Shown here one piece after another: positions 1 to 12,024 of a stretch of 12,024 nucleotides of DNA. The notes beneath the pieces are model-generated. The model had not been told where the DNA came from and searched no databases. It saw only the letters and a program-made list of their open reading frames with translations. The position numbers were made by a program, and so were the translations under genes. Numbering within the stretch: the first letter of the stretch is position 1; each line of letters starts with the position of its first letter. The stretch is from a virus (taxonomy: Duplodnaviria > Heunggongvirae > Uroviricota > Caudoviricetes): the IMG/VR virus record IMGVR_UViG_2574180358_000007; one strand, 5' to 3'.

Positions 1-1209
1 TCATAAAGACTTGCTACTTTCTAATTCTGGGTTTCTGGATCTATTTTTACAACCTGAACCCGGCTGGGAATTTAGTATATCTTTTATCAAATCTTGTTCG
101 ATAGCATTTATTAAGAGCATTATGTCGAATTTATGCATGTCGTCTCCCCCTTCAGTCCTTAGATGTTCGGATGTGGTGAGTTGAGTCGCTAATTTGCTGT
201 TTGGCCCCCAAACAATATTATTCTCGAATTTCCCTTCATGCATTCGGTTATTATATATACAGTATTGTCTAATGTTTAATGCACTGGCTAAATGTACAAT
301 GGCAGTATCTACAGTTATAACAAAATCAGCATGGCGAACCAATGCAAATGAGCATCCTGCATCAGAAAATGGAGACAGAGACACATAATCCAATCCATTG
401 TGATTAATCTGTTTTCCCATGTTAAAAACTATTGTGTGATATCCCTTAAGATTGTTAAGGTAAACTAGTACTTTGTTTATCTGTTCATCAGATAAGGTTC
501 TGCTATTCTGAGAGCCATAAGGGTTAAATATAACTAATTTTTTGTTTTTCTTCCTGAATTCATTTGCAACAATATTTGCTGGCTCATATATTTTGTTGTC
601 AAAATTAAGCGCTGCAGCGTAATCATTATTTTTTATCTTTAGTAAAGATAAAACTTTTTTCATTCTTTCAGATGAGTGAACGGAACGGTTATCGATTATA
701 TTTGTATCAAAAATAGTTACGGCAGGATGATTAAAACAGATAGAGTGTTTAGGTTTAAGTAAATATAGTGTTTGCAATCTGGTTATCGCTGTGTTATCAA
801 AATTTGAGAAGTCAACAACAAGATCTACATTCAGTTTTTTTATCTTTGCTTTTAGTTCGTTAAATTTATTTTTCTCGTAAGAAATAAAGGCATCCACGCC
901 AACAATATCAGTAAAGAGGAATGATACTCTTGGAGGTGCTATCACATATACCACCATACCGGATTCTTGAAGTTGTTTAATAAACCCTGAGGTAACGATG
1001 CCGTCACCAATGGCCTGCATGTGCATGAAAATGCACACTGTTTTATAACTATCCGACTGTAATGATGTTTTCCTTCTGTATCGCATTTTTAGAAATGCCA
1101 GTCTGGCCTTCGTCTTTATCTTTTTTGTTTTAATATTTCGCTGTCTGTTAAGCTGTTTTAATGATGAAATAACATTCATAATGGTACCCTGAAATTCCAA
1201 ATCACTCAT
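1..1209 (-). CDS. Glycosyltransferase family 9 (heptosyltransferase-like) protein; start codon uncertain
   Basis: Minus-strand ORF ending at TAA (bases 3..1). The C-terminal half carries GT9-like motifs read from the translation: KKLVIFNPYGSQNSRTLSDEQ and ADFVITVDTAIVHLASALNIRQ, which resemble the HPGAS..K.WP and VGNDSGPMHLAAA regions of heptosyltransferases. An N-terminal Rossmann-like start is at KTVCIFMHMQAIGDG. The track ORF begins with GTG at 1347 and would overlap tfa; in-frame ATGs lie at 1209, 1179 (AGGG about 7 nt upstream) and 1086, and I chose 1209 without strong support. Codon usage is very A/T-rich and Lys-rich. Confidence 0.55.
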   Translation of the reverse strand: MSDLEFQGTIMNVISSLKQLNRQRNIKTKKIKTKARLAFLKMRYRRKTSLQSDSYKTVCIFMHMQAIGDGIVTSGFIKQLQESGMVVYVIAPPRVSFLFTDIVGVDAFISYEKNKFNELKAKIKKLNVDLVVDFSNFDNTAITRLQTLYLLKPKHSICFNHPAVTIFDTNIIDNRSVHSSERMKKVLSLLKIKNNDYAAALNFDNKIYEPANIVANEFRKKNKKLVIFNPYGSQNSRTLSDEQINKVLVYLNNLKGYHTIVFNMGKQINHNGLDYVSLSPFSDAGCSFALVRHADFVITVDTAIVHLASALNIRQYCIYNNRMHEGKFENNIVWGPNSKLATQLTTSEHLRTEGGDDMHKFDIMLLINAIEQDLIKDILNSQPGSGCKNRSRNPELESSKSL

Positions 1210-1273
1210 GTCATTCGAAACGAGCAGGGTACTATACAAAAAACTGGACTTCAATGGTTTGAAATGAAAGCCT

Positions 1274-1873
1274 TTATGCTTGTTTACTCCTTGATTCCAC
1301 TGGGGAAGCAGGCCACTCAATATCCGGTGCACTTGATGTATCAACACGGTTCAGCAATACCCGATACTTTTTCCATGCTTCCAGCAACGAGATTTCTTCC
1401 TCCGTTGCAATTTCCAGATCTGCAGCATCCTGAAGCGGCGCAATATGCTCACTGGCTACCTGCATCAGGTTGTTTTTTGTTTCTTCCGCCTCCCGTATCC
1501 GGAACAGTTTTTCTGCTTCCGTATCCTTCACCCAGGCTATGCCGTTCCACTTCTGATATTCCCCTTCCGGCGACAACCAGGTAACATTTTCCGGTAACGG
1601 ACCGAGTTCAGAAATAAATAACGCATCGCCGAAAGCCACGTCATAAACCGTTTTACCACGATGATCTTCAACGAGATGCCAGGACGCCTCATCACTGTTG
1701 AAAATAGCCACGAAGCCAGCCGGAATATCTGGCGGTACAATATCGGTACTGTTTGCAGGTAGACCTGTATGAGGTGGAATATATGTGTCACCTTCACCAA
1801 TAAATTCATTAGTTCCGGCCAGCAGATTATAAATTTTGATGGTTCGTGATTGTTCACTCATTCTGAATGCCAT
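1274..1873 (-). CDS. tfa: Phage tail fibre assembly protein (lambda Tfa / TfaQ-TfaR-TfaE family)
   Basis: The 199-aa translation [44 protein letters not shown]...[14 protein letters not shown] matches, from memory, the tail fibre assembly proteins of E. coli cryptic prophages (Rac, Qin, e14) almost residue for residue. ATG at 1873, stop TAA at 1276..1274. Confidence 0.85.
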
Positions 1874-1903
1874 TATGCAAGCCTCACAATATAGTTAAAT
1901 GCA

Positions 1904-2371
1904 ATGTTTTTGACGGTGTTTTCCGCGTTACCAGCAGCGTTAACGGTGATGGTGTGTCCATGTGAGCCAATCGCAACGGAGTGCGTGTGTGCACCAATAA
2001 AGGCAGTACGGGACCGGGTTCACAATGAACTCAATGCCGGACATCCGGTACCGGGGTTTAAACTGGTAACAGGAAAACAAGGTAACCGGGCCTGGAGTGA
2101 TGAAGAGGCAGCTCGCGCACTTCTGAAGGACCAGTTCAGGTACAAAACTGAAGAAGTATTCGACTTTAAACTTATTAGTCCCACAAAAGCCGAAAAACTT
2201 ATCAAAAAGGCCAGTCCGCGCCGTTGGTCAAAAGTCGAGGCACTGATAACACGAGCTGATGGTAAACCCACCGTCGTTCCCGAGTCAGACCCACGCCCCG
2301 TACTCAATATCAACCCTGTAAATGATTTCGACGACGTATCCGACGATACGCTAACCGCAGACCTCATCTGA
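1904..2371 (+). pseudogene. 3' remnant of a DUF2800-family (PD-(D/E)xK nuclease-like) phage replication gene; N-terminal part missing
   Basis: A 155-aa ORF ends 16 bp before the DUF2815 gene on the same strand, the position a full-length DUF2800 gene (about 400 aa) occupies in this conserved module. The translation FKLVTGKQGNRAWSDEEAARALL...KPTVVPESDPRPVL looks like the C-terminal region of such proteins as I recall them. In-frame stops lie immediately upstream and tfa on the opposite strand ends only 30 bp away, so no room exists for the N-terminal two thirds. Confidence 0.4.
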
Positions 2372-2386
2372 TTTAAGGAAATACCC

Positions 2387-2935
2387 ATGAAACTGAAGCT
2401 GAACAATGTTCGTCTGGCCTTCCCGTCTCTGTTTGAAGCTAAAACTGTAAACGGCGAAGGCGAGCCGCGTTTCTCCGCAGTATTTTTAATGTCACCCAAA
2501 CACCCACAACTGGAAGAAATCCGTAAAGCTATGAAGCAGGTAGCGAAGGAAAAATGGGGAGAGAAGTGGGAGCCCATTTATAGCCAGCTGGAGAAAAAAC
2601 TCAATCTGTGCCTGCATGATGGTGATGAAAAAGCAGAGTATGAAGGCTTCCCCGGCAATTTCTTCCTGAATGCTGCTAACAAAGCGCGCCCAGCTGTTCT
2701 TGATCGCGATCGTTCGCCACTAATTCAGGCTGATGGACGTCCCTATGCAGGGTGCTATGTAAACGCCGTTATCGATATCTGGGCACAGGACAATAATTTC
2801 GGTAAACGCATTAATGCCTCACTCGGCGGAGTCCAGTTCCTGCGAGACGGCGATGCATTCGCTGGCGGCGGAGTGGCAAGCGCTGACGATTTCGACGATA
2901 TCAGCGAAGGCGCTGATGCTGAAGCACTAATTTAA
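2387..2935 (+). CDS. DUF2815-family phage protein (predicted ssDNA-binding, replication module)
   Basis: The translation MKLKLNNVRLAFPSLFEAK...RFSAVFLM...LCLHDGDEKAEYEGFPGNFF...LDRDRSPL...GRPYAGCYVNAVIDIWAQDNNFGKRINASLGGVQFLRDGDAFAGG follows the DUF2815 consensus as I recall it. SD AAGGA lies about 8 nt upstream of ATG 2387. Position between the DUF2800 remnant and PolA fits the known module order. Confidence 0.8.
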   Translation: MKLKLNNVRLAFPSLFEAKTVNGEGEPRFSAVFLMSPKHPQLEEIRKAMKQVAKEKWGEKWEPIYSQLEKKLNLCLHDGDEKAEYEGFPGNFFLNAANKARPAVLDRDRSPLIQADGRPYAGCYVNAVIDIWAQDNNFGKRINASLGGVQFLRDGDAFAGGGVASADDFDDISEGADAEALI

Positions 2936-2986
2936 AAATATTCATCCCCCAGCTACGTGCTGGGGTATCTCATGAGGGAAAGTATA

Positions 2987-3628
2987 ATGTCACAGCCCGT
3001 ATTAACTAATCACCTTAAAACTCAAATCATCAATAACGCACTTGAGAAAGCGGGTATTCCCAAACGTAAATCAGCACTACGAGCTGCTCGTGTTGAATGG
3101 GCCGAACGTGTTCGGCTTGCAGCTATCGGGGGCGTAGAGAAAGAAGCTGAAATATTAAAAAATATAAAAAAGATTGAATCCATGGTCACAAAAATCCCTG
3201 ATTCATTAAAAACCAATAGTTCTTTAATTCGAAAAGATTGCTGCATATATCTCAATCTGGCTGGAGCCAGAGCAAACATTTATTTCAATGGCAACTACAG
3301 AGGTTATGAATCAGGAGCCCCCGAGCATATTAATAAAATAGCACCTGCAGAATTTACTCTACTTGGCGAAGATCCTCTGGTAACGGAGTTTTATAGCTTT
3401 GATGCTCTCTACACACAAATTAAAAGTGATGAAACCGAAATCATACAGAACGTCAGCGCGGCTCTAAATAAAGTTCGGACAGTAAAACGATTACTGGATG
3501 TATGGCCCGAAGCTAAAGAACTGCTTCCAACAGACGCACCGCCAGTCCCTTTAGCACCAGCAGTACATCGAGAGACATTAAATGAAATGATAGGCCTTCC
3601 TACCAATACAGTGTCTGATACTCAATAA
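2987..3628 (+). CDS. Hypothetical protein (A/T-rich insert between DUF2815 and DNA polymerase)
   Basis: Uninterrupted ORF; GAGGGA lies 7 nt upstream of ATG 2987 (alternative ATG 2972, track start GTG 2957). No family recognised from the translation. Composition is A/T-richer than the flanking replication genes. Confidence 0.5.
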   Translation: MSQPVLTNHLKTQIINNALEKAGIPKRKSALRAARVEWAERVRLAAIGGVEKEAEILKNIKKIESMVTKIPDSLKTNSSLIRKDCCIYLNLAGARANIYFNGNYRGYESGAPEHINKIAPAEFTLLGEDPLVTEFYSFDALYTQIKSDETEIIQNVSAALNKVRTVKRLLDVWPEAKELLPTDAPPVPLAPAVHRETLNEMIGLPTNTVSDTQ

Positions 3629-4311
3629 CAAGGGGGATGCTTATTATATGATTTTGAACGTTTTACAATCTCGTTAAGAGGCGTGAAATCAAAATCTCTG
3701 AATAACACATCAGGATACTTCGCTCTTGCTTTATCCTGCAGACCAGTTAAAGTATTTTTTGTGTTACCCAACATTGTATTAACCGCCACTACATGTCTAA
3801 TTTCTGGAGGTTTATCTATACCACCAGAAATTGCTTCATTAAGAACCGACGCCAGTGGGGTTTGTCCCTTACTTGTTGAATCCCACAGCGTCATTAACAG
3901 ACGAGCTGCGTCTATAAATAGCTTTTTGTCAGCATTTGGCTTGACAGTAATACCAGAACTACCTGAGCCAGAACCGGAACGTTCTATTGCTGCACTGGTA
4001 TCCGATTTCATAGGATTAAATAACGGCAGCTCTGTACAACCGATACGCCGAATGAAATCCTTTGCAACATCTCTACCACAGAAAAAAGCCCCTGTACAAT
4101 TTTCATCAGAGCGTTTTTTAAATGAAAAACAATAGTACTGATCGGTTAACGGATAACCGGAATAACTGGTTTTAGTTTGTCCAGTAATAAGTTTCAGGTG
4201 TGCAACAGGCTGAATAATAAAATCCCGAACTATCGCATCTTTTATGTCGTTACCACGGTGACAATAATATTCAGGTAATCCATTAGGCTGTCTCTTATTA
4301 CCCACAGTCAT
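3622..4311 (-). CDS. Hypothetical two-domain protein with a Gly/Ser linker, encoded antisense to the replication operon
   Basis: 229-aa ORF with a strong SD (AAGGAGA, 6 nt spacer) upstream of ATG at 4311..4309. An internal SGSGSGSSG linker separates a Cys/His-containing N-terminal half from the C-terminal half. The 3' end overlaps the 3' end of the convergent gene 2987..3628 by 7 bp. No family recognised. Confidence 0.6.
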   Translation of the reverse strand: MTVGNKRQPNGLPEYYCHRGNDIKDAIVRDFIIQPVAHLKLITGQTKTSYSGYPLTDQYYCFSFKKRSDENCTGAFFCGRDVAKDFIRRIGCTELPLFNPMKSDTSAAIERSGSGSGSSGITVKPNADKKLFIDAARLLMTLWDSTSKGQTPLASVLNEAISGGIDKPPEIRHVVAVNTMLGNTKNTLTGLQDKARAKYPDVLFRDFDFTPLNEIVKRSKSYNKHPPCY

Positions 4312-4372
4312 TAGTTGTCTCCTTTAATTCATGATATCTAGCATTTAACCATATACCATATGAGGATATTTT

Positions 4373-6436
4373 ATGTCCAATATACTATGGGGCGACCTGG
4401 AAACCTATTGTGACATTCCGATCAACAACGGTACCCATGCGTATGCCGAAGGCGTTGAAGTGATGCTTTTCGCATGGGCTATCAACGACGGGCCAGTAAA
4501 CGTGTGGGATATCACTGCCGGTGGTGGTATTCCACACGGCTTATACGAAGCAATCGCAGACCCTGAAACCCTGCTTTATTTCCATAACTCTCACTTCGAC
4601 CGCACCGTTCTGCGTTATGCAATGCCGCGACTGGCACCGCCTGTCGAACGTTGGCGCGACACGATGGTGCAGGCGCTGGCGCACGGTCTTCCGGGGTCTC
4701 TGGGGGAACTCTGCGAAGTACTAGGCGTCCCGCAAGACAAAGCGAAGGACAAAGAAGGTAAAGCGCTGATCCAGCTGTTCTGTAAGCCACGCCCGAAAAA
4801 CAGCAAACTGCGTCGGGCCACCAGTAAAACCCACCCGGAAGAATGGCGGCGCTTTGTTGCTTACGCCGGACTGGATATCGAGGCAATGCGCGAAGTCTAT
4901 AAACGTCTGCCGAAGTGGAATTATCAGGGGACAGAACTGGCGCTCTGGCATCGTGATCAGCAGATCAATGACCGGGGCGTCTGCATGGACATGCAACTCG
5001 CACGCGCTGCGATCGAAGCGGTAGACCAGGAACAAAAGCGCCTGGCAAAGCGTACACAGGAAATGACTGATGGCGAAGTGCAGGCAGCCACACAACGAGA
5101 CGCGTTGATTAAGCACATTGTTGAATCCTACGGTGTGGAGCTACCAGACATGCAACGCAGTACTCTGGAACGTCGTATTGCCGACCCCGATTTACCATCT
5201 GCCGTGAAAGAACTGCTGGCTATCCGACTGCAGGCCAGTACTACCAGCACCAGTAAATACAAGGCACTAATGAAAGGCGTAAGCCACGACGGGCGCTTAC
5301 GCGGTACGCTACAGTTCTGCGGGGCGTCACGTACCGGTCGTTGGGCCGGACGGCTATTCCAGCCCCAGAATCTTCCCCGCCCTTCACTAAAACAGGAACA
5401 AATAGACGAAGGCATCGAAGCACTGAAAGCCGGATGTGCAGACCTGCTGTTTGACAATATCATGGAACTAACCAGTTCAGCGTTACGTGGCTGCATTATC
5501 GCGCCAACAGGCAAAAAACTGGTGGTAAGTGACTTGTCGAACATTGAAGGCCGTATGCTGGCATGGTTGGCAGGAGAAGAATGGAAACTGAATGCATTCA
5601 GAGAGTACGACGCCGGAACGGGTTCGGACTTATATAAACTGGCGTATGCAAAAGCTTTCGATATTGCACCAGATGATGTTGATAAACACATGCGTCAGAT
5701 CGGTAAAGTCATGGAGCTCGGTCTGGGTTATGGTGGTGGTGTATCGGCTTTCATCACTTTTGCGCTGGTTTACGGTCTCGATCTCGACGAGCTGGCGAAC
5801 GCCGCATTGCCAAACATTCCCCGCGATGTTATCCGCGAGGCGAAAAGCTGGTACGACGAATCGGTTAAACGCAAGTCAACCTACGGGCTTTCTGAACGGG
5901 TATTTATCGCCTGCGACTCACTTAAACGTCTCTGGCGCAGGGCGCACCCGGCGACCTGCGATTTCTGGTACGAACTGGAGCGCACCGTCCGCACAGCAAT
6001 CGCCACACCGCAAAAAACATTGTATTGCGGCTATCTTAAAATCCGACGTGATGGCGCGTGGCTGCGCATACAGCTACCATCCGGACGCGCTGTATGCTAC
6101 CCGTCTCCGGTTATCGAAAAAGGGAATATCACCTACAGGGGTGTTAACTCTTATTCGCGTAAATGGCAACGACTCAAAACCTACGGCGGAAAGCTGGTGG
6201 AGAACGTCACCCAAGCAGCCGCCCGCGACGTTCTGGCCGGAAACATGCCGCTGATCGAGGATGCAGGTTACAGCATTGTGCTGACGGTACACGATGAGGT
6301 AATCACCGAGGCGCCGGACACTGACGATTTCAACGATAAAGCGCTTTCCGCGCTGCTCTCCACTAACCCCGAGTGGGCACCCGATATCCCGCTGAACGCT
6401 GGCGGCTTCGAGGCGTACCACTACCGTAAGGATTAG
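4373..6436 (+). CDS. Family A DNA polymerase with 3'-5' exonuclease domain (phage-type, no 5'-3' exonuclease domain)
   Basis: Exonuclease motifs WGDLET (Exo I) and [12 protein letters not shown] (Exo II). Polymerase motif [20 protein letters not shown], motif [17 protein letters not shown], motif [18 protein letters not shown] lies 6 nt upstream of ATG 4373. Confidence 0.9.
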
Positions 6437-6449
6437 CTGATCGCTGTCA

Positions 6450-6478
6450 TTGCTGCTTTGCTAAATATTGCTTATTTT
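6450..6478 (+). promoter_or_regulatory. Putative sigma70-type promoter upstream of the TIR-like gene (TTGCTG, 17 nt spacer, TATTTT)
   Basis: Hexamers read by eye in the 53-bp gap between the polA stop and the TIR-like start. The match to consensus is weak and the -10 element sits very close to the SD. Confidence 0.2.
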
Positions 6479-6489
6479 ATAGGAAAATA

Positions 6490-7251
6490 ATGATGCAGGA
6501 TCTCAATGAAATGGCTCTCAAATACCCACACCCTGTCGAAACTTTTCGTCAATTTTTAGTCGAATCCGGATTTGATGTTACCGGAGAAGAAAACAAAGCC
6601 GGTCATGATTGTTATCGTTTAAGTAATGGTGCCATCATAACGCTTTACCACACCGGAACGATTTTGATTCAAGGCTCACAAGCGGCAAAACCAGAGGTTG
6701 AAGCCATTATTAATGAACACTTGGGTAACGCGCCAGCTCAACGAGTTCAGCCAGCCCAGTTTCAAGAGCCAGCCAAAAAGATTTTCATCGTTCACGGTCA
6801 CGACCATGCAGCAAAAGAGCAGCTTGAGCTCATTCTTCATAAGCTTGGGTTACCTGATCATTTTATTTTGCAGAATACAGGCGGTACTGGACTTACGATA
6901 ATTGAAGAACTTGAGCGTGAAATTGGTCAAGGGCAGACAGCGACTCGTTTCGGCATTGTTCTTCTCACTCCCGATGATGTGGGGTACTCCAAAAGAGACG
7001 GTCAAGAAGCAGCCCTGCCCAGGGCTCGTCAAAACGTAGTTCTAGAAATGGGGATGTTGTTATCATCACTCGGGCGCAGTAACGTGGTCATCTTGCAGAA
7101 GCAACACCTTGAACAGCCTTCTGATGCTGCGGGTATTCTTTATCTCAACTTTAATGATCATGTTCGAGAAACTGTACCTCGCTTAATCCAGCGTCTTAAA
7201 CAGGCCGGTTTCACATTTAATGAAGCTCAAATAGCGAACGCTTCATCTTAA
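6490..7251 (+). CDS. TIR-like domain protein (COG4271 / Cap12-PycTIR-type predicted nucleotide-binding fold) with an N-terminal domain of about 95 aa of unknown function
   Basis: The C-terminal approx. 150 aa, KIFIVHGHDHAAKEQLELILHKLGL...IIEELERE...FGIVLLTPDDVGYSKRDG...PRARQNVVLEMGMLLSSLGRSNVVILQKQHLEQPSDAAGILYL, follows the TIR-like consensus as I recall it (FIVHGhD ... AIVLlTPDD ... RARQNVifELGyf.GkLGr.rV ... PSD..G). SD AGGA lies 5 nt upstream of ATG 6490. An intrinsic terminator follows immediately downstream. Confidence 0.6.
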   Translation: MMQDLNEMALKYPHPVETFRQFLVESGFDVTGEENKAGHDCYRLSNGAIITLYHTGTILIQGSQAAKPEVEAIINEHLGNAPAQRVQPAQFQEPAKKIFIVHGHDHAAKEQLELILHKLGLPDHFILQNTGGTGLTIIEELEREIGQGQTATRFGIVLLTPDDVGYSKRDGQEAALPRARQNVVLEMGMLLSSLGRSNVVILQKQHLEQPSDAAGILYLNFNDHVRETVPRLIQRLKQAGFTFNEAQIANASS

Positions 7252-7279
7252 TCAATCATTTTCCTAAAATGTAAAAAAA

Positions 7280-7301
7280 CCCTGCAAATGCAGGGTTTTT
7301 T
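7280..7301 (+). terminator. Rho-independent terminator downstream of the TIR-like gene (A-tract, GC hairpin, T-tract; potentially bidirectional)
   Basis: aaaaaaa-CCCTGCaaatGCAGGG-TTTTTTgttt is read directly from the sequence, 29 bp after the TAA stop at 7249..7251. Confidence 0.75.
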
Positions 7302-7317
7302 GTTTGAGGTAACCCCT

Positions 7318-7539
7318 ATGTCATTTAAATATCGGGACAGTCCCCTTTATTACCGGACTGCGCGGGAGGCTTTGCGCCTTGAGCAGATCGGCGAGTACGA
7401 CCGGGCGGCAAAAGCCTGGGCCAAAGCCAACCGCGAATCACGTAACGCACTGAATCAGGACTGGAGCGAACGCCGGTCTGATTTTTGCCTGATGCAGAAC
7501 ATGCGCGAAAAGCGTAAGGCGGTGGACGATGGCGTATGA
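7318..7539 (+). CDS. Small hypothetical phage protein (73 aa) translationally coupled to VRR-NUC
   Basis: ATG 7318 with GAGG about 10 nt upstream. Its stop TGA 7537..7539 overlaps the VRR-NUC start ATG 7529 (ATGgcgtATGA arrangement). The track ORF start at 7288 lies inside the terminator hairpin and is rejected. Confidence 0.5.
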   Translation: MSFKYRDSPLYYRTAREALRLEQIGEYDRAAKAWAKANRESRNALNQDWSERRSDFCLMQNMREKRKAVDDGV

Positions 7540-7801
7540 GCGTGAAAGCCTTATCGAAAAGCACCTCATCGCCGAAGTGAAAAAGGCTGGCGGGATCGCC
7601 TTTAAGTTTGTGTCACCCGGTCGCCGCTCGGTACCGGATCGGATTGTCCTGTTACCCGGCGGTCGTCTCGTCTTTGTCGAATGCAAAGCACCTGGCAAAC
7701 CACCACGCACCGACCAGCTGCGCGAGCATGAACGGCTGCGCGCGCTGGGCTTTACCGTGGTGGTGCTGGATAGCAAAAATCTTGAGGGGATATTATTTTG
7801 A
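7529..7801 (+). CDS. VRR-NUC domain nuclease (PD-(D/E)xK fold)
   Basis: 90-aa product with PDRIVLLPGGRLVFVECKAPGKPP, matching the VRR-NUC D...E.K core. It sits in the expected module position upstream of the SNF2 helicase. Confidence 0.8.
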   Translation: MAYERESLIEKHLIAEVKKAGGIAFKFVSPGRRSVPDRIVLLPGGRLVFVECKAPGKPPRTDQLREHERLRALGFTVVVLDSKNLEGILF

Positions 7802-8437
7802 TTTATCTTTAGGGCTGAGCAAACATGAACGGAAAGCATTCCGTTCTTCAGTACTGGATTTGATAAACGTGAAGTCCTTATCTGCATCTAATAGCTTAAA
7901 CGCCACCTCGTTAGTATCACATTTACCCACCAGAACCTTCTCACCCACGTTGTTAACAAGATGGTATCCTGGTATTTCTCTAACGATATATTTACCTGAA
8001 GAAACCCAAGCACTTATTTGAGCAACTGACGAGGTACATAACATTGTGAAGAGTGCAATAAGAACAACGTTGCTACCAGAAAGACTCCGAAAAGATTTAT
8101 GCCCATCCATTAACAGCTGCCACGTTAACAGTATGGGATAAAATGCAATAAAACAAATAGCGAAAACAATTGGTTTTCCGCCACTCATGTAAAAACCGAT
8201 CGGATTAACCAATCCAACAAACGAAAAATACAACACCGCCGCAACAACCGTAGTTAAAACAAAAGAGAGCCAGTACCTACTTAACTTATAAACCCTAAAT
8301 GAAGTAGCTATCGCTATAAAAATAGGCACTGAAGCCAAACCAGTAAATGAAAGAGTTTTTAGCAGCGAGCTAACATCTATCAATATAAAGTCAGCAGGAT
8401 AACTAAAAAAAATAAGCGAAAGACCATTGATAAACAT
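7793..8437 (-). CDS. Predicted integral membrane protein (about 5 TM helices) with a small soluble C-terminal domain; function unknown
   Basis: 214-aa ORF with ATG at 8437..8435 and no clear SD. Hydrophobic stretches LSLIFFSYPADFILIDV, GLASVPIFIAIATSF, WLSFVLTTVVAAVLYFSFVGLV, IVFAICFIAFYPILLTW, VVLIALFTMLCTSSV are followed by a polar approx. 65-aa tail. Visibly A/T-rich, antisense to the flanking replication genes, and overlapping the VRR-NUC 3' end by 9 bp. Confidence 0.6.
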   Translation of the reverse strand: MFINGLSLIFFSYPADFILIDVSSLLKTLSFTGLASVPIFIAIATSFRVYKLSRYWLSFVLTTVVAAVLYFSFVGLVNPIGFYMSGGKPIVFAICFIAFYPILLTWQLLMDGHKSFRSLSGSNVVLIALFTMLCTSSVAQISAWVSSGKYIVREIPGYHLVNNVGEKVLVGKCDTNEVAFKLLDADKDFTFIKSSTEERNAFRSCLLSPKDKSK

Positions 8438-8560
8438 ACACCAATAAATATGTAAAAATAGAGATCGCAGTTATTAGCGGAATTTTTTGGTCCCATAAAG
8501 ACTCCGAACGTTCAATTGTGGTCATATTCATATCATCATTATTTACATTGAGTGGCGTTT

Positions 8561-9958
8561 ATGAGTATAAACTTATTCTCACCCCATCCATATCAAAACC
8601 TCATCATAAACCACGAAATTGACACTCTGCGCTGCAACATCTGGGCGGGTATGGGAATGGGTAAAACCGTGGCGACGCTCACCACGCTGGAAGATCTTTT
8701 TATGGCGGGAGCGGAGACACAGCCCGCGCTGGTGTTGGCACCGCTGCGCGTAGCCGCCAGCACATGGCCGGATGAAGCGGTTAAATGGGGGCATTTGCGC
8801 AATATCGAGGTGCAGCCGATTATCGGTAATGCCAAAGCACGCGCGGCGGCATTGGCGAACAGCAACGCCAGCGTGTTTACAATCAACTACGACAATCTGG
8901 TCTGGCTGGTGGAAGAGCTGGGCGACAGCTGGCCGTTCGGTACCGTCATTCCGGATGAAAGCACCCGGCTAAAATCCTTCCGGCTGCGAGGTGGTGGTAA
9001 GCGCGCGGCGGCGCTGGGCAAAGTGGCGCATAAGTATGTCCGGCGCTGGATAAATCTCACCGGGACGCCAGCACCGAACGGCCTGGTAGATTTGTGGGGA
9101 CAAGCGTGGTTTGTGGACCAGGGGCAACGTCTCGGACGCACTTACGGCGCGTTTACCTCACGCTGGTTCAACTCGATACAGTTTCCAGGGCAGAGCTGGA
9201 CCAAACTGGAGCCGTTTGCTCACTCACAGGCTGAAATACAGCGAGCATTAGCCGATGTGACCCTCTCGCTGGATGCGGCCGACTGGTTCGATATCAAAGA
9301 CCCCATCCATAACGTAATCCGCGTGGATATGCCGCCGAAGGCCCGTCAGCAGTATCGTGAAATGGAAAAGGAAATGTTCCTCGAGCTGAATGGCGAAGGC
9401 ATCGAAGCACCGAACGCCGCGGCAAAGACACTGAAGTGTCTTCAAATCGCCAGTGGCGCAGTATACACAGACGACACCGGAAGTTGGTCAGAACTGCATG
9501 ACACCAAACTACAGGCGCTGGACAGCATACTGACCGAAGCAGCTGGCGCACCTGTGCTGGTTGCTTATCACTGGAAACACGATCTTGAACGCTTGCTTAA
9601 AGCATTCCCTCGCGGTCGTCACCTCGACCAGGATCCACAGACACTGCGCGACTGGAATTCCGGAAAGATTCCTGTTCTCTTTGCACACCCAGCCAGCGCG
9701 GGCCACGGCCTGAACATGCAGGACGGCGGGAATATACTGGTATTTTTCTCACACTGGTGGGACCTGGAGCAATATCAGCAAATTATTGAACGTATCGGCC
9801 CCACCAGGCAGATACAGGCCGGACACAATCGTCCGGTATTTATTCACCACATTATTGCTGCCGACACTATGGACGAAATGGTGATGGAGCGGCGCAACTC
9901 AAAACGAACAGTGCAGGACATCCTGCTCGATGCCATGAAAAAGAGAGGTATAGCATGA
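8561..9958 (+). CDS. SNF2-family (DEAD-like) helicase of the phage replication module
   Basis: Walker A GMGKT, motif II IPDEST, SNF2 motif III LTGTPAPNGLVDLW, and C-terminal helicase motifs HPASAGHGLNMQ and QQIIERIGPTRQ. ATG 8561 is preferred over the track GTG 8552; only a weak SD is present. Confidence 0.85.
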   Translation: MSINLFSPHPYQNLIINHEIDTLRCNIWAGMGMGKTVATLTTLEDLFMAGAETQPALVLAPLRVAASTWPDEAVKWGHLRNIEVQPIIGNAKARAAALANSNASVFTINYDNLVWLVEELGDSWPFGTVIPDESTRLKSFRLRGGGKRAAALGKVAHKYVRRWINLTGTPAPNGLVDLWGQAWFVDQGQRLGRTYGAFTSRWFNSIQFPGQSWTKLEPFAHSQAEIQRALADVTLSLDAADWFDIKDPIHNVIRVDMPPKARQQYREMEKEMFLELNGEGIEAPNAAAKTLKCLQIASGAVYTDDTGSWSELHDTKLQALDSILTEAAGAPVLVAYHWKHDLERLLKAFPRGRHLDQDPQTLRDWNSGKIPVLFAHPASAGHGLNMQDGGNILVFFSHWWDLEQYQQIIERIGPTRQIQAGHNRPVFIHHIIAADTMDEMVMERRNSKRTVQDILLDAMKKRGIA

Positions 9959-10155
9959 GCGAGAAACCCGACGATTTACTCACCCCGGATGAAGTATGCC
10001 AAAAGTTAGGTATTACACAGAAAACGCTATGTGAGTGGAATATTAAGCATCGTCATCGGGCTATCCTGGCACCAATTCGTTTCAGTGCAAAAGTAGTTCG
10101 TTATGAGCGCCGCAATGTCGACGCTTTTATTCAAAAGTGTCGCAGCCGGTATTAA
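9955..10155 (+). CDS. AlpA/Xis-family helix-turn-helix protein (putative excisionase or transcriptional regulator)
   Basis: 66 aa, LLTPDEVCQKLGITQKTLCEW...VVRYERRNVDAFI, matching the AlpA-type pattern (HTH followed by a conserved VRY/W segment). The start ATG overlaps the helicase stop (ATGA), with AGAGAGG upstream. Confidence 0.65.
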   Translation: MSEKPDDLLTPDEVCQKLGITQKTLCEWNIKHRHRAILAPIRFSAKVVRYERRNVDAFIQKCRSRY

Positions 10156-11549
10156 CCTCGCCGCCGTAGCAATGCCACCTGCGCAAGTATGCTCCGCTCG
10201 TGAGCCTCGAAAGCTTCGCGCTTTAACGCAATCTCTTCCTGCAAAATCTCATCAGAAAAGTCGTAATGTTCTGCCATCGGGTCATCTGACTTGCTGGAGT
10301 GGTGAAGGCAAAGGAGGCTGATTTCCCTTCGGTCTGATCGGGAATAGCCTCTTTCCTTCATCAAGGCAATAACATTGCTCTTAAGGAATTTACGGCACAT
10401 CGTATTAAATGCACCGTCTTTCCCTTTAACAGTCCCATCATGTTTTATTCCTTTTACAGCCCCATCCGGGCTGTATGTTTTCACTAGCTTATCCAGTGAT
10501 CGTTTTGAAAATGGCTGCATTGGATCACGCGGCTGCAAAAATACATAATCCCTGTTGCACTCAGGAACTGAATCACGCCATGCTTTCTGCTCGTCGATAA
10601 TCCGCCGGATCTCCGGCGTTATTGGCAGGCGGAAAGCCTTTTGTGTTTTCATAGCCCCTCGCATGCCGATAACCCCTTCAGGATAAACAATTTCGCCAGT
10701 CTCCTCGTGAACGTAGTCCCAGCGCAGGTTATGGACATTAATCGGACGAACGCCGGTGATGATCATGAAGCGAACAGCATTCTTCTGGTGTACAGAGGTG
10801 CAGGCGGCAACATTGAGCCAGAGCCGGGCGATTGACTCAATATCGGTAAAAAGCCGTGTGGGGGTGGGTTTCTGTACGCGGGAGGAAACATAATCATCTG
10901 GCAGACTGGCAGCAACATTGCGACCGTTACAAAGAGTAGGTGCGCAGAACTTCCAGAACCGACGGAGCTCGGCAAACAACTCCAGGGCGTTATTGTTCGA
11001 GCGAGTGGCGATCCACTCGTCCAGCACTTCCACTAGCCGATTGTATGTTACGTCGCCGAACACCTCGCGCTCGCCGAACGTGGCTTTAATCCGGTCGATA
11101 CGCACCCCGTAGGTTGTGAAACTGTCCGGGCTCAGCTTCTGCCGGGCTACTTTAGCTTTGAGGTCATCCCGGTACATTTCCAGCGCTGCATGTACGGACT
11201 CTGCCCGCAGTCCACCGTCAGCCATACCTAGTGCTTTTTCGCGCGCCAGCTGGATAGCGAGCTCCGGCCACTCGCCAAGCTTTTTACCTTTGAGGCCCAT
11301 CTTTTTTGGAAACTCGGCGTAAAATGTAACCTTACCGGCTTTGCTGAAATCGATACGGAGATAGTTCTCTTTTTCGTATTTGGAACGGCGAGCCACGCCG
11401 GAAGCGGCGAGGATGATTTTGGCAGCAGCAACACAGATTTTCATGTGTGCGCTGATATAGGGGGGTTTACAGGCGTCCCATTTTTCAGATGCGGCTAAAA
11501 CATCGTCATTATTGGGGCTATCCGGATTATGTGTTACAGTGCGCGGCAT
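10152..11549 (-). CDS. int: Tyrosine-type site-specific integrase (P4-like family)
   Basis: An N-terminal arm-binding-like segment (YLRIDFSKAGKVTFYAEF) precedes the catalytic domain (MIITGVRPINVHNLRWDYV ... LLCLHHSSKSDDPMAEHYD, with a C-terminal Tyr candidate). ATG at 11549..11547 has AAGGA 6 nt upstream. The track start is TTG at 11555, and an alternative ATG lies at 11444. Confidence 0.85.
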   Translation of the reverse strand: MPRTVTHNPDSPNNDDVLAASEKWDACKPPYISAHMKICVAAAKIILAASGVARRSKYEKENYLRIDFSKAGKVTFYAEFPKKMGLKGKKLGEWPELAIQLAREKALGMADGGLRAESVHAALEMYRDDLKAKVARQKLSPDSFTTYGVRIDRIKATFGEREVFGDVTYNRLVEVLDEWIATRSNNNALELFAELRRFWKFCAPTLCNGRNVAASLPDDYVSSRVQKPTPTRLFTDIESIARLWLNVAACTSVHQKNAVRFMIITGVRPINVHNLRWDYVHEETGEIVYPEGVIGMRGAMKTQKAFRLPITPEIRRIIDEQKAWRDSVPECNRDYVFLQPRDPMQPFSKRSLDKLVKTYSPDGAVKGIKHDGTVKGKDGAFNTMCRKFLKSNVIALMKERGYSRSDRREISLLCLHHSSKSDDPMAEHYDFSDEILQEEIALKREAFEAHERSILAQVALLRRRG

Positions 11550-11754
11550 TCTCAATCCTTATCTGCGTAGGCGCAGAAAACAAGCTCACACATATAAGTC
11601 TTTTCTACGGGACAAAATGCAATGTGTTGCGGTTTTGTGTTGCTGGACTGAGTTTATCAAGGTTAAATACACTGGATCAACATACAGTAAGTTAATGACG
11701 GTAAAGCATACAAACTCGATACAACTTACTGATTTTAAAATGATTTAACGGTAA

Positions 11755-12024
<270 letters not shown>

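Follow-up and report, generated by a model that had tools for sequence, protein, structure and literature searches.

The stretch of DNA analysed here (the window; 12,024 nt of the IMG/VR virus record IMGVR_UViG_2574180358_000007, Caudoviricetes) carries at one end a complete gene for a WaaU-like glycosyltransferase of family 9 (GT9; positions 1–1179, minus strand, 392 aa). We consider it rather probable that its product is an active cytoplasmic GT-B enzyme of the WaaU-like branch, carried as accessory cargo by a temperate myovirus and predicted to modify the lipopolysaccharide (LPS) core of the host.

The GT9 coding sequence, its fold and its relatives

An ORF scan showed that the open frame on the minus strand spans positions 1347 to 1 and closes with a TGA codon at 3–1. 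The first-pass annotation had placed the gene at 1–1209; the ORF is indeed complete and a start at ATG 1209, which would add 10 aa to give a protein of 402 aa, is possible, but ATG 1179 is the more likely initiation codon. It is favoured because the RefSeq CDS (WP_032161795) uses the same start, and because this Met corresponds to the first residue of homologues from other genera, in which a conserved basic N-terminal segment (LNRQRNIKTKKIK) follows. At its other end the protein has a disordered C-terminal tail of approximately 22 residues; neither WaaU nor the homologues outside E. coli possess it.

The A/T bias and Lys richness remarked on earlier are both evident. The gene has a GC content of 34.1% (GC3 31%), compared with 46.5% for the adjoining tail-fibre assembly gene (tfa) and 48.9% for the remainder of the island, and Lys and Asn each account for 9.2% of the residues. 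Two E. coli alleles of the gene gave a dN/dS ratio of 0.17 over residues 1–360. The ORF is therefore not due to chance, and the gene is under purifying selection. Among the E. coli copies, 48 of 49 match without interruption, while a single one (1/49) is broken by ISKpn26.

The proposed assignment to GT9 was upheld by the Pfam model PF01075, although weakly, with a score of 25.8 bits against a gathering cut-off of 22 (E 8e-6) and an alignment spanning residues 221–322 only. This match is weak and partial when taken alone, but both the profile comparison and the predicted fold bear it out; precomputed PF01075 matches were present in 21 of the 34 homologue clusters. The AlphaFold model of the protein (pLDDT 89.9, pTM 0.86) adopts the GT-B fold typical of GT9. 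The top-ranking Foldseek matches in the PDB were the GT9 protein 3TOV (E 3e-14), WaaC (6DFE, 2H1H, 2GT1) and WaaF (1PSW), with E values from 3e-14 to 2e-11 and, for the best GT9 structures, TMq of 0.57–0.64 and TMt of 0.68–0.72. Other searches were less productive: (i) phmmer against PDB chains found no genuine match, only a spurious one to hnRNP L (E ~0.01), (ii) NCBIfam gave only RfaQ and heptosyltransferase I matches of ~22 bits, against cut-offs of 185–467, (iii) no anti-phage defence family of PADLOC matched at E <= 0.1, and (iv) a fold search of BFVD retrieved only distant GT9-like metagenomic phage proteins (9–16% identity). The protein also matches PHROG 36326, a family of unknown function (E 5e-227).

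Five residues, G58, D59, D291, T292 and H296, do not vary among the 34 sequences of the family (34/34). The last four align to D13, D261, T262 and H266 of WaaC, i.e. to the Asp of the GD motif and to the D-T-x-x-x-H box. The phosphate-binding K192 of WaaC aligns with an invariant Arg (R227), and no clear conserved counterpart of the ribose-binding E222 was seen, in a loop that is poorly aligned and where the alignment is unreliable. With Arg at the K192 position and no evident equivalent of E222, a donor other than ADP-heptose is therefore possible.

The first-pass annotation had presented the protein as a divergent relative of the LPS-core heptosyltransferases WaaC, WaaF and WaaQ. Its GT9 membership stands, but its closest kin, as judged by hhalign, lie elsewhere. 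The family profile matched K-12 WaaU with a probability of 99.4% (E 6e-22, 307 columns), compared with E 4e-7 for WaaQ and E 1.4e-5, across 48 columns only, for WaaC; in tblastn, K-12 WaaU was the top reference match to the family gene in 26 of the 31 loci scanned. By these comparisons the nearest characterised relative is the outer-core heptosyltransferase IV, WaaU, and not one of the inner-core enzymes WaaC, WaaF and WaaQ. With the latter three and 3TOV the window protein shares the GT-B fold, the GD-motif Asp and the D-T-x-x-x-H box, but its identity to them is marginal (13–17%), and on sequence grounds it is not an equivalog of WaaC, WaaF or WaaQ.

In the outer core of K-12, WaaU (formerly RfaK) places the fourth heptose on the third glucose, the site of O-antigen attachment (PMC13293308). 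The window protein resembles it in its length, in its GT9 catalytic motifs, in the basic N-terminal segment or helix, and in the Y-x-N and W-x-P-N motifs that follow the DTxxxH box; both genes have a very low GC content (31% for waaU, 34% for the window gene). The differences are equally clear. Identity between the two proteins is only about 21–27%, and waaU has a fixed chromosomal place in waa operons of the K-12 type and is absent from the R3-core strains in which the window gene mostly occurs, whereas the window gene is prophage cargo. No E. coli copy with an examined or annotated flank is placed in the waa core operon; all of these copies are prophage-borne. The gene is accordingly best described, with regard to its predicted function, as one that would work like a waa gene yet is no orthologue of waaU.

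Prophage neighbourhood and co-inheritance with tail-fibre genes

In the window, the GT9 gene directly follows an intact tfa gene (positions 1274–1873, minus strand, 199 aa; Pfam Caudo_TAP, E 4e-43), from which it is separated by a spacer of 94 bp (positions 1180–1273, minus strand); this is the gene order first described. The depiction of tfa as an orphan was also correct, as just ~125 nt of the 3' end of a gpH-like tail-fibre gene (positions 1874–1998, minus strand) are left before a truncated DUF2800 gene. Positions 3–1998, tfa included, are 94.9% identical at the nucleotide level to P2-like prophages, and homology to both a P2-like prophage (L002) and a full-length prophage in yfhL (L016) ends at 1998–1999, a junction at which the RefSeq annotation lists a truncated tail protein together with the truncated DUF2800 gene. 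As read from these alignments, a deletion ending at 1998–1999 took out the lysis, head and tail modules.

Beyond the junction, the early/replication arm of this prophage has survived (positions 1904–11555, without strand assignment; Pfam and RefSeq annotation); it encodes the truncated DUF2800 protein, a DUF2815/Enc34 single-stranded DNA-binding protein, Nmad5, a family-A DNA polymerase, a TIR protein, a VRR-NUC protein, an SNF2 helicase and an integrase. The attachment core, the 18-bp sequence AATTGTGATATGTGTGAA (positions 11794–11811, plus strand), was sought in intergenic regions and not found there; it sits within the coding sequence of yfhL, at its 5' end. Across the island (locus L001), adjoining the GT9 end, the 5' end of yfhL occurs again as a displaced copy. 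In strain FDAARGOS_943, which carries a full-length version of this prophage, the GT9 gene is located at the far, attR-proximal end.

The gene is rare, being carried by 49 of 5426 complete E. coli genomes (0.9%), which is at odds with a conserved chromosomal waa paralogue in this species, the case that the first-pass annotation had named as one that would refute its proposal. The prophage cargo position that it had proposed was recovered in every case: wherever neighbours were examined, the E. coli, IMG/VR and Providencia copies are all in a prophage, just after tail-fibre genes, and all E. coli copies with an examined or annotated flank lie beside tfa. Two arrangements were distinguished. In P2-like prophages the GT9 gene is inserted between tfa and gpU, and 13 IMG/VR contigs likewise have tfa upstream and gpU downstream of it; in the yfhL prophage no other intact gene lies between it and attR. 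In sister P2-like prophages the same slot is occupied by an acetyltransferase (hexapeptide or serine type), which may or may not be accompanied by a macro-domain gene. A position at a module boundary or prophage end, a deviant GC content and a slot whose content varies among similar prophages are all features of an accessory gene. P2 itself has a cargo ("moron") slot after the tail-fibre genes, with Z/fun between G and FI. The window arrangement resembles it in that an AT-rich, non-essential gene directly follows the tail-fibre assembly gene and the content differs among sister prophages; in contrast to the Z/fun slot, however, the cassette holds a glycosyltransferase and also terminates an unrelated, E217-like prophage.

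The two prophage types are connected by a shared segment. A 3' fragment of gpU, the GT9 gene, tfa and the fibre tip are 90–93% identical between the P2-like prophage and the unrelated E217-like prophage in yfhL. In E. coli, the fibre tip, tfa and the GT9 gene have moved together between a P2-like and an E217-like prophage. Moreover, decayed prophages at two separate loci still contain the GT9 gene in intact form.

The same linkage bears on the timing of expression. A consensus scan of the 94-bp spacer and of the region downstream of the GT9 gene revealed no sigma-70-like site and no terminator, the numbers of candidate sites being no higher than in shuffled controls; the spacer holds no convincing promoter or terminator. 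Read-through from the late tail-fibre operon is therefore possible, and the enzyme might then serve the lytic cycle, altering the LPS of the infected cell and so sparing progeny virions from adsorption to debris or infected cells. The orientation of the gene, which is that of the fibre and tfa genes, and its co-inheritance with the fibre tip and tfa would be in keeping with such a role. We nevertheless regard it as quite unlikely, since the gene is intact and under purifying selection in remnants that cannot make virions, and since the alternative cargo of the tfa–gpU slot lies on the strand opposite to tfa, as would suit cargo genes that are expressed independently. Newly made LPS reaches the outer membrane, and dilutes the material already there, only with time, and such slow replacement fits poorly with a late function.

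Homologues in other taxa and the choice of acceptor

One of the checks proposed earlier was whether homologues are restricted to prophages. This is not the case, as other taxa carry them in waa or O-antigen clusters. In a metagenome bacterium, the homologue (P0009; 55% identity) closes a run of genes annotated waaL-GT9-GT4-waaP-GT4-GT8-GT8, directly before waaA-coaD; this position, last in the run of waa outer-core genes, is equivalent to that of WaaU. In Orbus and Gilliamella (Orbaceae), the homologues are located among GT8, GT2, WaaS-like and second WaaU-like genes. In Citrobacter sp. JGM124 the gene lies between asmA and galF, and a related metagenome homologue between galF and wzx; these two (46–47% identity) stand at the head of an O-antigen-type cluster. 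E217-like prophages of Providencia encode a homologue (48–54% identity) directly after the tail-fibre genes, paired with a convergent hexapeptide acetyltransferase gene. In Symbiopectobacterium the longest ORF is truncated and surrounded by transposase genes, and this copy is therefore uninformative with regard to function. Overall, the placement of chromosomal homologues within waa and O-antigen clusters strengthens the LPS reading.

The GenBank phage collection contained no DNA match to the gene, and a protein search of the same collection found only two Campylobacter phages (24% identity); the GT9 gene is thus carried by none of the sequenced isolated phages in this collection.

The enzyme might instead glycosylate a protein, be it the tail fibre of the phage or one on the host surface, in the manner of the autotransporter heptosyltransferases TibC and Aah. 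These two share with the window protein, distantly, a GT9-like GT-B fold; TibC is among the structural matches, a phage protein is labelled Aah/TibC-like in BFVD, and the GT9 gene lies beside tail-fibre and chaperone genes. The TibC match (4RAP; E 3.5e-6, TMq 0.47) is, however, much weaker than those to 3TOV, WaaC and WaaF (E 1e-11 to 1e-14, TMq 0.57–0.64), and no autotransporter gene is found nearby, either in the window or in the P2-like prophage neighbourhoods; on these two counts membership of the BAHT group (TibC/Aah) was rejected. Furthermore, the chromosomal homologues reside among LPS genes and not beside adhesins, and in the window the GT9 gene is still conserved although the fibre has been deleted. 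A protein substrate is, in our view, very improbable.

A second candidate acceptor is the O-antigen repeat unit or another undecaprenyl-linked glycan (enterobacterial common antigen, colanic acid or capsule), on which the enzyme would act as a cytoplasmic side-branch transferase in a form of classical seroconversion. The two homologues at the head of an O-antigen-type cluster are suggestive of this, as is the acetyltransferase paired with the Providencia gene, which belongs to a class typical of O-antigen modification; the O-antigen is also the target of known seroconverting prophages (PMC12373910). On the other hand, WaaU and all solved GT9 structures of known function among the best matches use lipid A-core, and the P0009 homologue is located inside a waa operon. 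The observed link is, moreover, to a core type (R3), across carriers of varied sources and pathotypes, and the O-antigen alternative therefore appears unlikely.

This link emerged when core types were compared. R3-type waaL and waaD were present in 45 of the 49 carriers (the other 4/49, AR_0118, AR_0119, AR_0128 and ET791, were not R3), compared with 1364 of the 5426 genomes overall (25%); Fisher's test gave p 4e-23, a value uncorrected for shared ancestry, and several carriers are near-identical isolates. Among genomes with the acetyltransferase cargo, at most 15% were R3. It should be kept in mind that the association could mirror the host range of the phage instead of the specificity of the enzyme.

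A cargo-specific link of this strength is hard to reconcile with neutrality, i.e. with a gene that no longer has a function in E. coli and is merely pulled along by tail-fibre recombination. The rarity of the gene, the ISKpn26 insertion in one copy and the apparently truncated Symbiopectobacterium copy among transposase genes might be viewed as signs of such hitch-hiking. Yet the dN/dS ratio is low across the catalytic body, all catalytic residues are kept and nearly all E. coli copies are uninterrupted, and we find a neutral passenger hard to credit.

Predicted lysogenic conversion at the LPS core

Modification of the LPS core remains the preferred reading, and the following course of events may be envisaged. 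The conserved basic N-terminal helix would hold the enzyme to the inner face of the cytoplasmic membrane, where a sugar, most probably L-glycero-D-manno-heptose from ADP-heptose, would be passed to the nascent lipid A-core before its export. The outer core, in E. coli probably of the R3 type, would thereby gain a side-branch or terminal residue. The expected outcome would be lysogenic conversion affecting the LPS core, a reading for which inference gives good support. The modified core may mask the receptor of the phage's own tail-fibre tip and of other core-binding phages, and the O-antigen ligation site could change. The gene travels together with the fibre tip and chaperone in a single cassette, and it stays intact after prophage decay, as in the window.

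Fibres of the P2 type bind the LPS core. We tentatively put forward a more specific possibility, which we hold with limited confidence, namely that the R3-type outer core contains a residue recognised by the fibre tip and that the linked WaaU-like enzyme caps this same residue in the lysogen. Such a bind-and-mask cassette might provide self-exclusion at the receptor level, might create a sixth, phage-determined E. coli core glycoform with a possibly altered O-antigen ligation site, and might be exchanged as a whole between unrelated myoviruses by recombination within the fibre gene.

Prophage-driven changes of LPS are already known for the O-antigen. As in GtrABC glucosylation, Oac O-acetylation and the iap/wzy system of phage D3, a temperate phage is proposed here to alter the LPS of its host and hence its susceptibility to phages. 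The target of those systems is the O-antigen, and most of them use bactoprenol-linked sugars on the periplasmic side, whereas the window gene encodes a single soluble GT-B enzyme of a core-assembly family. No gtrA or gtrB partner was found near the GT9 gene, whose neighbours are tfa and gpU or the prophage end; a Gtr-type seroconversion module was rejected, as this is a single gene without the set of gtrA (flippase), gtrB (bactoprenol glucosyltransferase) and a serotype-specific gtrC. A literature search on prophage core glycosyltransferases, heptosyltransferases, GT9 and R3 found no functional study and no prophage-encoded core glycosyltransferase; the sole mention was of "glycosyltransferase family 9" in tables of Pseudomonas aeruginosa prophages.

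The LPS core of E. coli is commonly viewed as a matter of five fixed, chromosomally encoded types (R1–R4 and K-12), and R3 strains include many STEC. If the proposed function is correct, the core would also vary through mobile elements, in a manner invisible to typing schemes based on the waa locus. It would offer a simple means of receptor masking, relevant to the prediction of host range in phage therapy of R3 strains, and would show clearly how a module for receptor binding and an enzyme for receptor modification can be inherited as a linked pair.

The GT9 gene and its predicted product

The GT9 glycosyltransferase gene lies in an open frame on the minus strand (window 1347 to 1, with TGA at bases 3-1), and since the window starts exactly at the stop codon, the coding sequence is complete. 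The first-pass annotation had placed the start at ATG 1209, a position covered by the open frame; however, both the RefSeq CDS (WP_032161795) and homologues from other genera, whose N-termini share the basic segment LNRQRNIKTKKIK and begin at the equivalent Met, match ATG 1179, which gives a 392-aa protein. The reported A/T and Lys bias was confirmed: the GC content is 34.1% (GC3 31%), versus 46.5% for the tail-fibre assembly gene (tfa) and 48.9% for the remaining island, and Lys and Asn each constitute 9.2% of the residues. The immediate upstream neighbour, on the same strand, is tfa (1274-1873, minus), which encodes an intact 199-aa protein (Caudo_TAP, E 4e-43). Scanning detected no promoter or terminator for the GT9 gene, and a role in the lytic cycle, rather than in the lysogen, is a rival reading.

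The match to Pfam Glyco_transf_9 was weak and partial (residues 221-322), although above the gathering score (25.8 vs 22 bits). The NCBIfam matches, to RfaQ and heptosyltransferase I, were sub-threshold only, phmmer against PDB sequences gave no meaningful match, and the strong PHROGs match (phrog_36326, E 5e-227) was to a family annotated as of unknown function. The AlphaFold2 model, built from a family alignment of 34 sequences, had a mean pLDDT of 89.9 and a pTM of 0.86, with disorder confined to the last 18 residues. In a Foldseek search of the PDB, GT9 structures ranked first, as the annotation would predict: 3TOV of Veillonella (E 2.8e-14, TMq 0.63/TMt 0.70), E. coli WaaC (6DFE, 2H1H, 2GT1) and WaaF (1PSW). 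In contrast, the protein heptosyltransferase TibC matched with only E 3.5e-6 and TM 0.47, a comparison that bears on protein glycosylation as a rival function. MAFFT alignment of the family with the four K-12 GT9 enzymes paired D59 with WaaC D13, and D291, T292 and H296 with WaaC D261, T262 and H266, all of them family-invariant; the invariant R227 was aligned with WaaC K192. Judging by this invariance of the WaaC catalytic positions, the enzyme looks catalytically competent.

WaaC, WaaF and WaaQ had been proposed as kin, but comparison of the family profile with K-12 enzymes (hhalign) points to WaaU among the K-12 GT9 enzymes (probability 99.4%, E 6e-22, 307 columns, 21% identity), versus E 4e-7 for WaaQ and E 1.4e-5 for WaaC, the latter over 48 columns. 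WaaU shares with the family a basic N-terminal segment and the Y-x-N / W-x-P-N motifs downstream of the DTxxxH box, and its gene is likewise very AT-rich (31% GC). This enzyme adds the fourth heptose onto the third glucose of the K-12 outer core, which is the O-antigen attachment site (PMC13293308). An exhaustive hmmsearch of 1.84 billion cluster representatives with the family profile yielded 117 proteins at E <= 1e-30, 750 at <= 1e-10 and 3119 at <= 1e-3; the WaaU-like family is a modest sub-family.

Chromosomal and phage-borne relatives

The homologues are not restricted to prophages. One of them, P0009 (55% identity to the window protein), is the last in the run waaL, GT9, GT4, waaP-like, GT4, GT8, GT8; it directly precedes waaA-coaD and adjoins mutM-rpmG-rpmB, the canonical core locus layout. 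Two others, P0027 (between asmA and galF in Citrobacter sp. JGM124) and P0029 (between galF and wzx in a related metagenome contig), each head an O-antigen-type cluster, and an O-antigen or another glycan, instead of the core, is a rival target. The gene is also chromosomal in Orbus, Schmidhempelia (an Orbaceae symbiont) and at least 8 Gilliamella species, where its neighbours encode GT2, GT8 (WaaO/WaaJ-like) and WaaS-like proteins, often with a second WaaU-like gene in tandem. In bee-gut Gilliamella (loci L020-L028, about 10000-12400), several GT8 genes (WaaO/WaaJ-like) flank the tandem pair, which looks like a non-canonical outer-core locus.

Among 5426 complete E. coli genomes, 49 contained the GT9 gene, in no case on a plasmid, and 45 of these copies were ~96.5% identical to the window. 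Those examined resided in P2-like prophages, with tfa on one side and the tail gene gpU on the other; the same arrangement (tfa upstream, gpU downstream) was found in 13 IMG/VR viral contigs, in keeping with the cargo position first proposed. In Providencia, the homologues (48-54% identity) belong to E217-like myovirus prophages and directly follow the tail-fibre gene or, in two loci, tfa; some are followed by a convergent hexapeptide acetyltransferase gene. In sister prophages with matching flanking tail genes, the slot holds a 181-aa hexapeptide "transferase" or a serine acetyltransferase, sometimes also a macro-domain gene, with the cargo on the opposite strand, and is therefore a variable cargo site.

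Small hexapeptide-repeat acetyltransferases recur at the post-tail-fibre position (L094 2292-2837, L080 11158-11724, L005 11167-11733), replacing GT9 in E. coli P2-like prophages and convergent to it in those of Providencia, suggesting that this site holds a set of cargo genes for modifying surface glycans. When the E. coli acetyltransferase was the query, about 59 matches lay on plasmids.

A further rival is that the gene is a neutral passenger. Between the two E. coli alleles, dN/dS was 0.17 over residues 1-360, and the catalytic body is under purifying selection. The disordered tail (residues 361-392, window 1-96), absent from non-E. coli homologues, differs at 10 of its 32 residues (10 non-synonymous changes vs 1 synonymous). 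Decay is also evident in the P2-like prophages of strains 165 and AR_0128, whose capsid and baseplate genes are truncated, but GT9 is intact in both. The only visibly inactivated copy of the 49 is split by ISKpn26 (NZ_CM166354.1, strain CH468, 4426774-4429150).

Origin and content of the island

In four genomes the window allele (>= 99.9%) lies between yfhH and yfhL. At this site FDAARGOS_943 carries a nearly full prophage, in the order integrase, replication, lysis, head, E217-like tail, tail fibre, tfa, GT9, frameshifted gpU fragment, yfhH. In the window, the same element has lost everything from DUF2800 up to the final 125 nt of the tail-fibre gene, and homology to both references ends at 1998-1999; tfa is indeed an orphan, its fibre partner deleted but for those 125 nt, which at the junction (~1998) are fused to the remaining 3' portion of DUF2800. 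A segment comprising the gpU 3' fragment, GT9, tfa and the fibre tip is common to the yfhL and P2-like prophages (19600-22016 and 22159-22437 of the P2-like prophage L002, 90-93% identity), so GT9 came into the yfhL prophage along with the receptor-binding tip and the chaperone of that tip.

The three closest complete genomes carry IS903B in or beside the 5' end of tfa (21906-22874 in the yfhL-site relative L001); the window lacks it and so derives from, or represents, a pre-IS form. Integration occurred within the 5' end of yfhL, the prophage supplying a replacement 16-residue N-terminus (window 11764-11811, L001 19370-19417), with the displaced original at the other end of the island; both copies contain an identical 18-bp core, AATTGTGATATGTGTGAA (window 11794-11811). 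No tRNA was found in the window.

The replication module (window 1904-9958) comprises the truncated DUF2800 gene and genes for a DUF2815/Enc34-type ssDNA-binding protein, Nmad5, a family-A DNA polymerase, VRR-NUC and an SNF2 helicase; Nmad5, a nucleotide-modification-associated domain, is a hint of base modification in the DNA of this phage group. Amid the replication genes lies a 253-aa TIR-domain protein (6490-7251, plus strand) matching the PADLOC candidate defence family PDC-S35 (E 1.6e-109) and the Pfam CAP12/Pycsar-type TIR, probably a prophage-encoded anti-phage effector. Two AT-rich ORFs oriented against the replication genes around them (3622-4311, minus, 229 aa; 7793-8437, minus, 214 aa), hypothetical in RefSeq and with no Pfam or PADLOC match, look like further cargo insertions.

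Association with R3 core hosts and proposed function

Window-like strain L6-21 carries an R3-type waa locus (waaQ-G-P-I-Y-J-D-L), and both published R3 typing primers (PMC13293308) match it, with the expected 1021-bp product. Using a chimeric query of GT9 and 1 kb of R3 waaL, we detected R3 waaL in 45 of the 49 GT9 carriers, versus 1364 of 5426 genomes (25%); an R3 waaD search returned the same 45 carriers and the same four exceptions (AR_0118, AR_0119, AR_0128, ET791). For the control, the acetyltransferase cargo of the sister prophages, R3 was found in at most 33 of 184-217 carriers (<= 15%). The Fisher p of 4e-23 is uncorrected; because the carriers include several near-identical isolates, fewer independent events underlie it than the count implies. 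Phage host range, acceptor specificity of the enzyme, or both could account for the signal.

The evidence best supports a GT9 enzyme, cytoplasmic and membrane-associated, that would put a sugar on the outer core of the host while LPS is being assembled. The analogy with WaaU makes heptose, donated by ADP-heptose, the probable sugar, and the acceptor in E. coli would probably be the R3 core; the outcome would be lysogenic conversion at the core level. P2-type fibres bind to the LPS core. Since GT9 and the fibre tip are inherited together, GT9 would most economically serve to mask the receptor used by the phage's own fibre.

The protein is already annotated as "glycosyltransferase family 9 protein", and GT9 genes occur in viral metagenomes and in tables of Pseudomonas aeruginosa prophages (PMC10449497); functional studies of a core glycosyltransferase carried by a prophage were absent from the literature searched. 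The case here would be one of phage-driven LPS modification by a WaaU-like core enzyme, linked to a single core type, that co-travels with the tail-fibre tip; this inferred function is open to direct test.
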